From assembly GCA_964586255.1 (NCBI GenBank), contig CAZPGE010000004.1:32693-96692 (forward strand): a stretch of DNA of 64,000 nucleotides. The letters are read 5' to 3'. The translations under genes were made by a program, and so were the position numbers. Below the pieces are notes generated by a model. The model did no database searches. It worked only from the letters and a program-made list of their open reading frames with translations, and had not been told where the DNA came from. Below are positions 29,692 through 49,128 of the stretch, in pieces; positions within the stretch are counted from its first letter, which is position 1; each line of letters starts with the position of its first letter. The stretch comes from an uncultured Candidatus Saccharibacteria bacterium (lineage in GTDB: Bacteria; Patescibacteriota; Minisyncoccia; Phycocordibacterales; UBA2100).

Positions 29692-29764
29692 CCGCCCGTA
29701 GCTCAGTCGGTAGAGCACCTGCCTTTTAAGCAGAGGGTCGTTGGTTCGATTCCAACCGGGCGGA
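29692..29764 (+). tRNA. tRNA-Lys (anticodon TTT)
   Basis: Cloverleaf: acceptor CCGCCCG/CGGGCGG, D-arm GCTC/GAGC, anticodon loop CTTTTAA, T-arm GTTGG-TTCGATT-CCAAC, discriminator A. No encoded CCA. Confidence 0.85.
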
Positions 29765-29902
29765 CTGAAACGAAGTGTAAGAACGCCCGGTTGCGAAGGG
29801 GGTCGGGGAAACAGCTGTTTCCCCGTGGAGGAAGGCAGCCGCGCAGCGGCGTTGGAAAACCGTGGGTTTCCAAGGCAACTGGGGCGGACATGACGTCACA
29901 AA

Positions 29903-35719: not shown

Positions 35720-38197
35720 GTGCGGGAGATTCCTGCAAAAAAGCAAAGAAAGAGGTTCTTTTCCCCACGCGTTTCATTGCGTCGCCTCGGCGCAGGGCGC
35801 ATCATGGTGGACATGAGGAAGCGCTTTACGAGTCGCGGTTATTCTATTCTTGCCGCGCTCGTATTCGTCGCGCTCTTGGGGAGCATCACGGTCGCCGTAA
35901 ATTTCGCCACTCCATCAGTCAATCGGATGGCGATGTCAGCACTTGCTCCCGCGACGGGCAACGTACCTACGAGTGCGCCTGCAAGCACGGGAAAGGAGAG
36001 CGGACAGAAACAGCAATGCCAACCCGGATACGATTATGTAGTGAACAAAGATTCGAAAGGAAAACCCCAGGTTGCTGCGCAGCCAGTCTGTCCGCCTCCG
36101 GGCGAAGCTCCCAAGGGTCCCGAACAGATAAAGAGCACTCAGCAGGGTGCGGCGGCGCTCGCCCTCGCGCCAGGCACATTCGGGGAGCGCAACGACCCGG
36201 TGCGATGCGAGCTTGATGCCAAGACCAAGCAGTACAAACCTAAGAGCGACTATAAGTGCAAGGTCAAATACTGCATACCGGTTGGCGGCAACAAAAGTGA
36301 GTGTAAAGAAGTAGATAATTTGTTTGGAGCGAATAGCAGTATCGATCCTTCGGCCGTAGAGAAAGAATTGAGAGAGCCTTTGATCAAAGATATTTTAAAG
36401 AATACCGACCCATCTGAGCATCAAAAACTTCTGGGCGAAATGGGGGTATCTTCAGCGGATCAAGACATATTGAAAAAAGCATATGAGGAAGACAAGACGG
36501 AGACAAAGGCTGAGATTGCACGGAATAACAACAGATTGTCCGAAATAGAACAGGCGCTTTCAAATTGCGCATACGGTGGATGTGATGAAGGGCGCAATGC
36601 GCGAGATGCAAAGTTGCTAGAGGCCGAAAAAGCGGCGCTCGACGCAAGAAATGAGTCACTGCAGAAGCGTCTCAGTGTTCTCTCAGCTGCTGAACAACAG
36701 CATCTTAAGCCCGGCGTAGTGCCTGGCACCGACCAACCGGGCGTTGCGCAGGTCTGCAGCACGGCAGGTGGATGTGTAGGGCCAGATGGCAGACCGGTGC
36801 CCAAAAACACTTTCCGTGATCCGGGACCTGCTGCGCCGCAGGGACCCGCGGGGCCTGATTCGCCAGCACCGAGAAGTGGAGGTAATCCGATGGGATCTCT
36901 TGGCTCGCTCTTGCAAGGGCTCTTGAAGGGATTGAGCGGCTCAGGTGCGGGACAGGGTGCTCCATGCGCGTCTGATCCAAACGCGTATCAGCAACAACAG
37001 CAGCAGTATCAGATGCAGATGCAGCAGTACAACTACCAGCTGCAGCAATATAATTACCAACAGCAACAAGCGGCCACGTTTGGCGGCCCGCAGCCCCTTG
37101 CCCCTGTGCCTCCAGCGGCATGCACGCCGAACGCGGATTCAAATACATGTCCTGCCGCTCCTGTGCAGCCGAAGACGGGATGCGCCAATGGCTCATGGAA
37201 GCCCGTGACTACACAGGGGTCAAATGGACGCCAGTGCACTACAAACTGGCAGTGCACGCCAAGCAACGCGGTCACGCCGACCGCGGAACTCTCATGCCAG
37301 CCAAAGGTCGCCGATGTGGGAATGTCAGTGGCCATATCTTTTTCATGCGCCAACGCGACAGGAAGCTCGGGTGCTGGCGGGGGATTCTCCACCGACAATC
37401 AAACATCGGGTTCGACGACGACCGTGATAGCGACCCCGCCGACGGGTGCTACGGGCATCACGTACGCGCTCACATGCCGCAACGAGAATCTGACTGCTCG
37501 CGCTGAATGTAGTGTGCAGATATCAAAACCGACCATCGTGTTACTTGCCAATCCGAAGAATGTTGTCTCTGGGGAGTCCTCGAGAGTCGGATGGGTGACC
37601 AGTGGCATGCAGTCGTGCGTCGTATCGAGCCCTCAGATGCCGGGTTTCACTACGCAAAACGCGAGCAATAAAAACGTAAATGGTGTCGCAACAACCTCGC
37701 CACTCACACGCAATACCACGGTGGTACTGACATGCCAGACTATCGGGGGTAGCACAAAAGCGGCTTCGACCACAATAGTGGTGGGCAACAGCACATCGAC
37801 ATCGGTCATGACGGTCTCGTCGACTATTGATGGTCGGACGGATGTAAAACATGGCGCCTCTACGACGATTTCATGGCAGACACCTTCGGCACCGTCCAAC
37901 TCTGCGGTCGCGCTCTGGCTCGTCGATTCTCAGAGTGGTCAGGCGACAGGACTCATCCACCGCTCGGCAAACACGTCGGGCTCGTACGTGTGGGCGATTC
38001 CGGCCACGAGCTCACCATGCGCAGTCGATTCTCCTGCAGTTTGTGGTGCGGATCTCGTCGTTGGTCGCACGTATTCGATACAGGCGTCGCTTTTCACACC
38101 TCCCAATGCGTATCTTGGCGGACTTCCGCCAGCAGACCCTATAACACCGACGTACCTCGACGAAGCATCTACGGCGAACTTCAAGGTGAGTAACTAG
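35720..38197 (+). CDS. large Cys-rich, Q/N-rich cell-surface protein with repeated Ig-like modules (N-terminal membrane anchor)
   Basis: GTG start per the ORF track; an alternative ATG is at about 35804. Poly-Q/N tract QQQQQYQMQMQQYNYQLQQYNYQQQQ. Repeated modules 'V.W.SxG..SCxV.SP...........LTC.T.GG' are shared with the 27122 protein. Confidence 0.5.
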   Translation: MREIPAKKQRKRFFSPRVSLRRLGAGRIMVDMRKRFTSRGYSILAALVFVALLGSITVAVNFATPSVNRMAMSALAPATGNVPTSAPASTGKESGQKQQCQPGYDYVVNKDSKGKPQVAAQPVCPPPGEAPKGPEQIKSTQQGAAALALAPGTFGERNDPVRCELDAKTKQYKPKSDYKCKVKYCIPVGGNKSECKEVDNLFGANSSIDPSAVEKELREPLIKDILKNTDPSEHQKLLGEMGVSSADQDILKKAYEEDKTETKAEIARNNNRLSEIEQALSNCAYGGCDEGRNARDAKLLEAEKAALDARNESLQKRLSVLSAAEQQHLKPGVVPGTDQPGVAQVCSTAGGCVGPDGRPVPKNTFRDPGPAAPQGPAGPDSPAPRSGGNPMGSLGSLLQGLLKGLSGSGAGQGAPCASDPNAYQQQQQQYQMQMQQYNYQLQQYNYQQQQAATFGGPQPLAPVPPAACTPNADSNTCPAAPVQPKTGCANGSWKPVTTQGSNGRQCTTNWQCTPSNAVTPTAELSCQPKVADVGMSVAISFSCANATGSSGAGGGFSTDNQTSGSTTTVIATPPTGATGITYALTCRNENLTARAECSVQISKPTIVLLANPKNVVSGESSRVGWVTSGMQSCVVSSPQMPGFTTQNASNKNVNGVATTSPLTRNTTVVLTCQTIGGSTKAASTTIVVGNSTSTSVMTVSSTIDGRTDVKHGASTTISWQTPSAPSNSAVALWLVDSQSGQATGLIHRSANTSGSYVWAIPATSSPCAVDSPAVCGADLVVGRTYSIQASLFTPPNAYLGGLPPADPITPTYLDEASTANFKVSN

Positions 38198-38740: not shown

Positions 38741-38825
38741 GGAGGGGTGGCAGAGTGGTCTAATGCACCTGTCTTGAAAACAGGAGTGGGGCAACCCACC
38801 GTGAGTTCGAATCTCACCCCCTCCG
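38741..38825 (+). tRNA. tRNA-Ser (anticodon TGA), type II with a long variable arm
   Basis: Acceptor GGAGGGG/CCCCTCC, anticodon loop CTTGAAA, variable arm GTGGGGCAACCCAC, T-arm GTGAG-TTCGAAT-CTCAC, discriminator G. Confidence 0.85.
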
Positions 38826-38896
38826 CCTTCGCCTCGCAGTAGCTCGGCTTCGGCGTGACGCAGTCCGCAGAAGAAGAGCGAAGGCGGGAAAATAAT

Positions 38897-39139
38897 ATGT
38901 ATTACGCATATAGTCTAAGATGCAAAGATGGTTTCTATGTTGGCTGTACTGATGATATTCAAGAGCGATTAGAGCGTCACCAAAAGGGGCAGGTCCCTGC
39001 AACCGTAGATCGTCTGCCTGTCGCGCTTGAGTTCTACTTTGCCATTGAAGATAAGTACAAAGCTTTTGAGTTTGAGAAATATCTTAAGTCGGGTTCAGGT
39101 CGAGCATTTATCAACAAACATTTTGTTAAGATGAGCTAA
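38897..39139 (+). CDS. GIY-YIG nuclease-superfamily small protein (UPF0213-like), AT-rich
   Basis: 'MYYAYSLRCKDGFYVGCTDDIQERLERHQKG' shows the GIY...YIG motif. About 42% GC against about 57% for the flanks. Immediately 3' of tRNA-Ser. Confidence 0.65.
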   Translation: MYYAYSLRCKDGFYVGCTDDIQERLERHQKGQVPATVDRLPVALEFYFAIEDKYKAFEFEKYLKSGSGRAFINKHFVKMS

Positions 39140-39202
39140 CTTCCTCGAAGGGTAGTGTCAGAAGAAGAATGTTCCGCCGTATCTGACCCATAGAGATGGA
39201 GA

Positions 39203-45858: not shown

Positions 45859-46012
45859 TTTCAGCGGGAGACTCGGTCACGCGTTAGCCTGAAGACTCGA
45901 CCAAGAGCTCGTTTGGTCGCCGTCGCGACCAAACTCCTCTCGGCCCTGTTCGCGCCGTCCCATCTGCTGATGGGTCCCGCGTCGCTCACTTTCTCGTCTC
46001 CCCCCGCTGAAA

Positions 46013-46049: not shown

Positions 46050-46055
46050 TTTTAG

Positions 46056-46140
46056 TGCGCGGGGGGAGACTCGAACTCCCATGCCCTTAACGGGCGCTAC
46101 CACCTCAAGGTAGTACGTCTACCAATTTCGCCACCCGCGC
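46056..46140 (-). tRNA. tRNA-Leu (anticodon GAG), type II
   Basis: Minus strand: acceptor GCGCGGG/CCCGCGC, D-loop AAATTGGTAGA, anticodon loop TTGAGGT, long variable arm, T-arm GGGAG-TTCGAGT-CTCCC. Confidence 0.85.
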
Positions 46141-48868: not shown

Positions 48869-48941
48869 GGCGACTGTGGTGTAACGGTTAACACTGGAGC
48901 TTGTGGAGCTCTCGATCAGGGTTCGATTCCCTGCAGCCGCC
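48869..48941 (+). tRNA. tRNA-His (anticodon GTG) with encoded G-1
   Basis: G-1 plus acceptor GCGACTG/CAGCCGC (one A-C mismatch), D-loop AACGGTTA, anticodon loop TTGTGGA, T-arm CAGGG-TTCGATT-CCCTG, discriminator C. Confidence 0.8.
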
Positions 48942-49128
48942 CAAAAAATAACAAAGCAGATGCGAAGCATTTGCGAGTTCTATTTTTCGGAGTGGCTGCA
49001 GGGAATCGAACGGCGGAGCGTGGTGAGGCCAGCAGGCCGAACCGCGAGCCGGTGCCCAACCCGAGTCGCGCGACGGTGCGACGAGAGGTGAGGGAGATTC
49101 CCGCTTAGGTAGCTCATGAACGGGTCTT

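Follow-up and report, generated by a model that had tools for sequence, protein, structure and literature searches.

In a 64,000-nucleotide (nt) stretch of contig CAZPGE010000004.1 from an uncultured Candidatus Saccharibacteria bacterium (hereafter the window, whose own numbering is used for all positions given without a locus label), the gene for tRNA-Ser(TGA) is followed by a conserved structured leader and a small GIY-YIG nuclease gene. We read the segment from 38828 to ~39172 as a promoterless selfish cassette at the 3' end of this tRNA gene, one member of a Patescibacteria-wide family that would spread by nuclease-stimulated recombination, and give this reading a probability of about 0.55. 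Judged from the sequences compared, the cassette family is large and old and occupies the 3' flank of tRNA genes with ends of the form ...CCGCC. More than 1782 proteins match that of the window, and the best 120 of them, 75–98% identical, span many classes of Patescibacteria, Paceibacterota, Azambacteria, Komeilibacteria, Nealsonbacteria and Taylorbacteria among them. The Patescibacteria clade is unusually conserved, with 75–87% identity across classes.

The linkage to tRNA genes is a property of the family. A scan with one genome per species gave more than 550 relatives; 80 loci were retrieved and scanned for tRNAs (labels such as L092 denote related loci retrieved for comparison with the window). 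Adjacency was counted on the 67 loci whose upstream sequence spans ≥450 nt. A same-strand tRNA gene ends ≤400 nt before the start of the GIY-YIG gene in 59 of these, and ≤200 nt before it in 51, bearing out for this family what an earlier reading made from the letters of the window (the sequence-only reading) had said of such genes, namely that they lodge beside tRNAs. The partner is Ser-GCT in 16 loci, Ser-GGA in 15, Ser-TGA in 10, Ser-CGA in 5, Ser-ACT in 1, Trp in 8, Asp in 2 and another tRNA in two. The junction ...CCGCC/TTCG recurs in ~60 genome loci and 38 metagenome loci, some of them devoid of an intact tRNA, and loci with no adjacent tRNA still keep a short tRNA-3'-like fragment at this point. 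Many contigs begin or end where the tRNA end meets the leader, as expected for a repeated or polymorphic segment.

The features of the locus in the window are as follows.

38741-38827 (to 38825 in Rfam), + strand: tRNA-Ser(TGA), called by ARAGORN and by Rfam RF00005 at 63.6 bits
38823-38831, + strand: junction CCGCC/TTCG between tRNA 3' end and cassette, invariant in essentially all loci
38828-38890, + strand: structured leader, 63 nt, covariance model R1, 76.8 bits, E 3e-19
38853-38868, + strand: hairpin hp2 (= P3), GCGTGAC GCA GTCCGC, whose 3' strand repeats the tRNA end TCCGC
38823-38832 and 38878-38887, + strand: arms of the inverted repeat described by the sequence-only reading, perfect, 10 nt
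38882-38888, + strand: probable ribosome-binding stretch AGGCGGG, 9 nt before the ATG
38897 (ATG) to 39139 (stop), + strand: GIY-YIG gene, 80 amino acids (aa), intact, Pfam PF01541, E 9.4e-11
39173-39178, + strand: possible decayed remnant of a tRNA 3' end, TCCGCC, 6 nt, 33 nt after the stop (weak)

The GIY-YIG gene behind tRNA-Ser(TGA)

The tRNA, the leader and the GIY-YIG open reading frame (ORF) all lie on the same strand, and the gap from tRNA to ATG measures 69 nt, in agreement with the ~70 nt given by the sequence-only reading. The mature end of the tRNA is G73 (38825), followed by CC and then T; thus, no CCA is encoded. No promoter-like or terminator-like site was found on the + strand between the tRNA and the ORF, and intrinsic terminators lie 3' of the ORF in several relatives. 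The leader occurs once in the 64-kb window (38828-38890), which holds no second copy of the nuclease gene. The identical gene is present in several samples of one study. On its right side, the hexamer at 39173-39178 might, as a weak sign, mark the edge of the insertion. Two direct repeats of the window were considered as target duplications and rejected: D1 (14 nt, 86%) and D2 (GTCCGCAGAAGAA / GTCAGAAGAAGAA, flanking the ORF) are imperfect and purine-rich and have no counterpart in the closest relative, L006, so they are probably due to chance.

The ORF is intact and the protein has 80 aa; the 81 given by the sequence-only reading correspond to the codons with the stop included. It matches PF01541 at 42.3 bits, against a cut-off of 22.6, over profile positions 1-73 of 78. 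Among 20 sequences of the family, 31 of the 80 positions are invariant, including Y14, G16, R24, R27 and H28, and Y5 and E60 are conserved in ≥90%. By analogy, these residues would supply the GIY tyrosine, the YIG Tyr-x-Gly, the arginine and the catalytic glutamate, and their conservation is consistent with an active enzyme. The AlphaFold2 (AF2) model (predicted local distance difference test score, pLDDT, 93.4) has the topology beta-beta-alpha-alpha-beta-alpha-alpha, with a three-stranded sheet flanked by helices as in the GIY-YIG superfamily. A profile of 20 relatives searched against the PDB found only 1ZG2 (E 1e-6) and 1YWL (E 0.07). Foldseek ranked 1ZG2 first and then the Slx1 nuclease domain 7CQ3 (root-mean-square deviation 2.1 Å), ahead of UvrC, and gave no match of the model to I-TevI. 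The label "UPF0213-like" of the sequence-only reading was therefore well chosen: both sequence and fold place the protein in the UPF0213/Slx1-like branch of the GIY-YIG superfamily. No NCBIfam model matches it, nor do the PHROGs and PADLOC profiles.

The composition of the gene sets it apart from its host. The ORF has 40.7% GC against a window mean of 54.3% (standard deviation 4.1 in 243-nt windows), which is the 0.5th percentile, and the 2-kb flanks have 55.5% and 53.0%. The contrast of 42% with 57% in the sequence-only reading was thus right about an AT-rich ORF and set the surroundings slightly too high. Amino-acid composition accounts for about half of the deficit, as the same protein written in the codon usage of 15 neighbouring genes would have 47.5% GC (against 54% for the genome). 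GC at third codon positions (GC3) is expected at 57.0 ± 5.4% in that re-encoding and observed at 38.8% (P ~2e-4). Since the deficit persists after re-encoding, the anomaly is real at synonymous sites. In 70 of 76 family loci, the nuclease gene has a lower GC3 than its host, with a mean difference of −12.8 points and r 0.61. AT-rich synonymous sites are the usual signature of mobile DNA; low GC is nevertheless common to the whole family and does not, by itself, date the insertion in the window. The only other segment near the cassette with GC as low as that of the nuclease gene lies at ~36240-36480 (41% GC), a Lys/Glu-rich stretch of a large upstream ORF (35720-38197, 797-825 aa) that also has a Gln/Tyr-rich repeat region and no Pfam match.

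The structured leader and hairpin hp2

About 60 bases 3' of the tRNA can be aligned across loci, with a mean column identity of 72% that holds across classes. The RNAalifold consensus is a long bent hairpin in which P1 (38832-38838 with 38883-38888) and P2 (38842-38846 with 38875-38879) are split by a GAA/GAA internal loop and hp2 forms the cap. Across 29 sequences, 95.6% of cells are paired, and compensatory changes occur in 9 of 17 pairs. Covariation scores 0.40, compared with 0.17 for shuffles and ≤0.09 for slid partners. The fold of 38815-38900 has z = −2.5 against shuffles. G-U pairs are found on the sense strand and favour a structure of RNA (or of the sense single strand). An alternative hairpin 1 (leader positions 5-11 with 15-22) covaries as well and shares bases with P1 and P2, so that a two-state fold is possible.

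Covariance model R1 finds the leader directly upstream of the nuclease gene across the loci searched, and in loci of simple type 3-13 nt separate its end from the ATG. The position of AGGCGGG (in some relatives AAGGAGG) resembles that of a ribosome-binding site, and the stretch also forms the 3' strand of P1, which would mask it. No Rfam family matches most of 38828-38890, even at E up to 10; the tRNA is the only Rfam match above threshold, and a sub-threshold sX4 match runs from the tRNA into the first 36 nt of the leader.

The inverted repeat that the sequence-only reading had placed between tRNA and ORF is real, with perfect arms (CCGCCTTCGC / GCGAAGGCGG), but its left arm reaches 5 nt into the tRNA as called. 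As a conserved closing helix between tRNA end and leader it was rejected in favour of P1/P2/P3: it is paired at 86.6% family-wide, with two positions unpaired in 14 and 11 of the 29 sequences. Being poorly kept, it is best seen as a local by-product of the leader in this subclass. On these alignments, the repeat is part of the leader and not an att-type or terminator feature.

Hairpin hp2 is 100% paired in the 29 sequences and has 3 covarying pairs. Its 3' strand is a copy of the last bases of the adjacent tRNA, and its 5' strand is their complement. Behind Ser tRNAs with the end CTCCGCC it reads (G/A)TCCGCC, behind Trp tRNAs with the end CCCGCC it reads (G/A)CCCGCC, behind the single Trp tRNA with the end CCTGCC it reads GCCTGC, and behind an Asp tRNA with the end GACCGCC it reads GACCGCC. 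In 43 of 46 loci, the base 6 nt from the tRNA end is the same as its hp2 counterpart (T behind Ser, C behind Trp and, in one locus, A behind Asp), and the mean match between hp2 and tRNA end exceeds that of all 2000 permutations.

Empty, occupied and decayed sites

Syntenic relatives of the window were found through the 156-aa protein encoded upstream of tRNA-Ser(TGA); the flavokinase neighbour, used as query in a metagenome scan, led to none. In L092, where the neighbour protein is 72% identical, S20, the large protein, the 156-aa gene, tRNA-Ser(TGA) and flavokinase-ribE are all kept. Its tRNA ends ...CTCCGCCAATAG, neither leader nor nuclease gene is present, and an unrelated 205-aa ORF comes next (empty site ...GAATCTCACCCCCTCCGCCAATAGTTTT). 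The cassette is likewise missing from L089 and L087, despite the same order of the 156-aa gene, tRNA-Ser(TGA) and flavokinase-ribE-ribH. L077 is syntenic with the window (156-aa protein 64%, flavokinase 60% and ribE 48% identical) and carries the cassette at the same tRNA, with a nuclease only 64% identical, whereas the nuclease of the non-syntenic L006 is 80% identical. Over 11 loci, identity of the nuclease does not track host relatedness as measured on the flanks (rho −0.32), and tRNA partner types are intermixed in the nuclease tree, which is built on 80 aa and weakly resolved. The comparison of the tRNA-Ser locus across relatives, proposed in the sequence-only reading, has therefore shown a gene that is absent from this position in several relatives and whose synonymous sites are not host-like.

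Footprints of insertion are visible in several loci. Copies of the tRNA 3' end sit 4-89 nt past the stop codon in L015 (11 nt), L060 (16 nt), L077 (14 nt), L065 (11 nt), L074 (9 nt) and L044 (9 nt). Next to the copy in L015 comes AATAGTTTT, the native flank, which stands behind the tRNA of the empty site in L092 as well. Repeats of ≥10 nt occur in 10 of 62 loci against 3 of 171 controls, some of the ten being intact downstream tRNAs. In L033/L035, an intact tRNA precedes a 3' fragment of a different tRNA-Ser, and then come the leader and the gene. Within the 8-kb locus L075, only one of the three tRNA-Ser genes carries the nuclease gene. The nuclease gene of L024 stops 7 nt short of the next tRNA.

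Other loci point to decay and amplification. Behind its tRNA-Ser(CGA), L117 (2426-2560) has an intact leader and a truncated nuclease gene that keeps the first 10 codons (ATG TAT CAT GTT TAT TCA TTA AAA TGC AAA, MYHVYSLKCK), with unrelated sequence beyond. For metagenomes, a scan with the hp2 19-mer gave many chance matches in high-GC coding genes, and leaders were re-selected by profile, leaving a leader-anchored sample of 38 loci with adequate flanks. Both tRNA and nuclease gene are present in 11 of these, a tRNA with no nuclease gene in 16, a nuclease gene with no intact tRNA in 4, and neither in 7. Behind seven gene-less leaders, a search for decayed nuclease remnants found nothing convincing, and L117 is the only case. 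At L079 (1-1820), a 430-kb contig labelled Bacteroidales opens with five tandem copies of leader and gene, repeated every 363 nt; the array is either an amplified cassette or an assembly artefact, and the family may occur outside Patescibacteria or the contig may be mis-binned.

Other observations concern the boundaries and surroundings of such sites. The cassettes of L034 and L038 lie behind tRNA-Trp in metagenome-assembled genomes labelled Saccharibacteria and Gastranaerophilales; their similarity runs through a terminator hairpin ~35 nt past the stop and the sequences are unrelated beyond it, the sharpest right-hand boundary seen. In L083 (3630-3936), a tRNA-like gene with no ARAGORN call, whose acceptor halves GGGGGTG... 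and ...CGCCCCCACC are ~250 nt apart, directly precedes leader and nuclease gene and may be an intron-containing tRNA. In L086 (51-578) and L095 (~90-600), the closest relatives (neighbour protein 76-80% identical), an ORF for a 175-aa HNH endonuclease, missing from this place in the window, separates the 156-aa gene from tRNA-Ser(TGA); each of the two contigs ends right at the tRNA 3' end. Various small nuclease genes gather around this tRNA.

Further tRNA genes of the window are followed by inverted copies of their own ends. The tRNA-His gene (48870-48942) has, 51 nt on, an 18-nt inverted copy of its T-arm/acceptor strand (48994-49011) and then a GC-rich motif ...ATCGAACGGCGGAGCG...GCCAGCAGGCCG...GAGCCGGTGCCCA... 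(window 48870-49090). An insert of the same kind lies behind tRNA-Ser in L089 (~2260-2400), where direct repeats (19 nt) of the tRNA 3' end flank it. The two seem to belong to a second family of tRNA-end inserts, this one non-coding. Downstream of tRNA-Lys (29692-29765), at a distance of 18 nt, its 3' strand recurs as an inverted copy of 10 nt (segment 29766-29793), and the minus-strand tRNA-Leu (46055-46140) has one of 12 nt at a distance of 47 nt (~45996-46007). Such downstream copies are not general among 130 tRNAs of other Patescibacteria loci and thus seem particular to the lineage of the window.

Proposed mechanism, competing explanations and known systems

The cassette would lack a promoter of its own and be transcribed by read-through from the tRNA promoter, and normal tRNA 3' processing would free the nuclease mRNA. 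The mature tRNA would be left untouched, which would make the site a harmless or neutral, highly expressed and conserved landing place. The leader would fold into its bent hairpin with the 3' strand over the ribosome-binding stretch, so that translation of the nuclease stays low. The nuclease, in turn, would break or nick DNA, either close to or at tRNA 3' ends or in the folded leader, and repair would copy from an occupied locus with the tRNA as one-sided homology, carrying leader and gene into new tRNA loci and new genomes. Repair may sometimes displace a copy of the recipient tRNA 3' end downstream, and copies would later decay into gene-less leaders. Two features of homing genes are present, namely sporadic occurrence at a site that is otherwise conserved and lies beside a conserved target gene (absent from L092, L089 and L087, present in the window and L077), and, as far as the weakly resolved tree shows, a phylogeny at odds with that of the host, with movement between sites; a third, a DNA-binding domain attached to the nuclease domain, has no match here. 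We therefore say that the cassette may work like a free-standing homing endonuclease gene and do not call it one. The mobile or homing-type character proposed in the sequence-only reading is supported as regards insertion beside a tRNA, but a bare Slx1/UPF0213-type catalytic domain leaves classical homing-endonuclease activity unproven.

If this reading is correct, genome-reduced Patescibacteria carry a widespread and very compact (~350 bp) selfish cassette at exact tRNA 3' ends, in which the smallest kind of GIY-YIG nuclease is joined to a structured leader that matches no Rfam family. The enigmatic UPF0213/YhbQ/Slx1-like proteins of bacteria would be placed in a clear biological context for the first time, and hundreds of loci with target-tied covariation would form a data set on site preference in the absence of a DNA-binding domain. 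The cassette explains the recurrent assembly breaks at tRNA-Ser genes in Patescibacteria metagenome bins, and the leader is an RNA motif worth adding to RNA family databases. The literature on tRNA-linked GIY-YIG genes in Patescibacteria (Candidate Phyla Radiation, CPR) and on UPF0213/YhbQ/COG2827, as far as our incomplete coverage goes, describes neither the arrangement nor the leader motif, and a prior description is possible.

A number of points weigh against a selfish cassette. Cleavage, its site and the transfer are deduced from sequence comparison. All 80 aa of the protein are catalytic domain, with no DNA-binding domain. The family gave one weak match in 2.9 million viral contigs, which leaves the cassette with no obvious vector. 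The possible tRNA-end remnant in the window has only 6 nt, and gene-less leaders are at least as common as leaders with a gene in the 38 metagenome loci. Median pairwise nucleotide identity is 71%, proteins are 60-87% identical, and the only near-identical pair with unrelated flanks is L034/L038, at 96%. Judged from this divergence and conservation, the family is old and under strong purifying selection, which also fits a useful host gene. Finally, simple homing does not explain why the tRNA end is copied into both strands of the hp2 stem. With hp2 as copy and complement of the last 6-7 bases of the tRNA, the leader may instead serve as a nucleic-acid specificity device for a minimal nuclease, its pairing or structure, in place of a DNA-binding domain of the protein, directing the 80-aa Slx1-type enzyme to tRNA 3' ends, or the enzyme may cut the transcript at the tRNA-leader junction; we regard this idea as doubtful. 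Cutting at the junction would mean that the element removes itself from the tRNA precursor, and either variant would represent a new kind of tRNA-end-targeting system.

The abundance of gene-less leaders raises the question of whether the leader itself comes first, either as a small mobile repeat that is non-coding or as an RNA with a function in the tRNA trailer. The nuclease would then act on it in trans, in a relation like that of RAYT to REP or of an autonomous element to a MITE, or be encoded by a gene that homes into the leader and not into the tRNA. This is unlikely in our view. A nuclease gene is missing behind 23 of the 38 metagenome leaders (16 of these 23 lie directly behind an intact tRNA-Ser) and behind the leaders of genome loci L069 (2812-2874), L018 (3542-3603) and L062 (4389-4448). 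Leaders or hp2 units often stand in tandem duplicates (L024, L020, L080 and L054), and their sequence is conserved across classes. Slx1-type nucleases are structure-selective (PMC7017083), a property that suits a hairpin-rich substrate. However, a single leader in the 64-kb window is not the dispersal of REP elements, L117 shows a gene-less leader arising by gene decay, and sense-strand G-U pairs point to a role of RNA in the tRNA-nuclease transcript and not to a DNA repeat. A host factor in tRNA metabolism or tRNA-gene maintenance, which might cut the precursor at CC/UUCG or resolve structures where tRNA genes are heavily transcribed and whose position would reflect co-expression with its substrate, is improbable. 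It would accord with the 31 invariant positions across deep lineages, with old nucleotide divergence in a family not carried by phages, and with the fusions or operons of prokaryotic Slx1-like domains with a TrmH-like methyltransferase and COG4123 (Dunin-Horkawicz et al. 2006; PMC1564403). The mimicry of the adjacent tRNA 3' end by hp2 would likewise suit it, as operator mimics behave in this way. COG4123 is regarded today as a tRNA N6-methyladenosine (m6A) methyltransferase. On the other side, GIY-YIG enzymes are known as DNases, presence is sporadic, close relatives have no nuclease gene at this site, two of the three tRNA-Ser genes in L075 are without it, the partner tRNA varies, truncated and tandem copies exist, and codon usage is not host-like.

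The position at a tRNA 3' end, together with partial direct repeats of the tRNA end in some loci (6 nt only in the window, 9-16 nt in several others), could also suggest what is left of an island that an integrase once placed at a tRNA attachment site. That origin is very improbable, as the insert measures ~350 bp, the same compact unit stands at many tRNAs, and the L024 gene stops just short of the next tRNA; no tyrosine or serine recombinase gene turned up among the called genes of the surrounding 12 kb, and no integrase in those related loci that were inspected. Least credible of all is an ordinary resident gene whose low GC stems from a Lys/Tyr/Phe-rich composition and whose place beside a tRNA is coincidental. 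Amino-acid composition does cover about half of the GC deficit, yet the GC3 deficit, the tRNA adjacency in 59 of 67 loci with its invariant junction, and the absence from syntenic relatives contradict it.

Among known systems, T4 SegB, an instance of 'intronless homing' and a precedent for the proposed mechanism, is a free-standing GIY-YIG homing endonuclease in a tRNA cluster that recognises a conserved sequence of the tRNA T-arm and drives the inheritance of itself and the flanking tRNA region (PMC2330249). The cassette resembles it in a GIY-YIG gene among or beside tRNAs, in sporadic presence and in carrying flanking pieces of tRNA. SegB, of ~220 aa, phage-borne and equipped with a DNA-binding part, belongs to the I-TevI/Seg branch, whereas the window protein is a bare 80-aa domain of Slx1/UPF0213 type. 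The cassette is also chromosomal in Patescibacteria and nearly absent from viral contigs; it always brings a conserved structured leader and joins the tRNA 3' end at a fixed point. The UPF0213/Slx1-like proteins (E. coli YhbQ, B. subtilis YazA, BH0048 1ZG2 and EF2693 1YWL) share family, fold and the form of a small stand-alone domain; for them, we found no report in the literature of linkage to tRNA 3' ends, a conserved leader or mobility.

REP/RAYT and IS200/IS605 elements combine a small nuclease gene with short hairpin repeats that are also found on their own, and IS200/IS605 elements carry an internal sequence that pairs with their target. The leader with and without its gene, and hp2 as copy and complement of the target tRNA end, recall both. 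These systems nevertheless rely on HUH tyrosine transposases with covalent intermediates, impossible for a GIY-YIG hydrolase, and the leader, unlike REP, is not dispersed through the genome and has covariation that includes sense-strand G-U, typical of RNA. The remaining parallel comes from Allomyces mitochondria, where Paquin, Laforest and Lang reportedly described in 1994 a free-standing mobile GIY-YIG ORF at the 3' end of atp6 that is said to bring a donor copy of the atp6 3' end and to displace the resident 3' end downstream. Its target is a protein-coding organelle gene and it has no conserved structured leader, but the displaced-end pattern is the one seen in L015, L060, L077 and L033.

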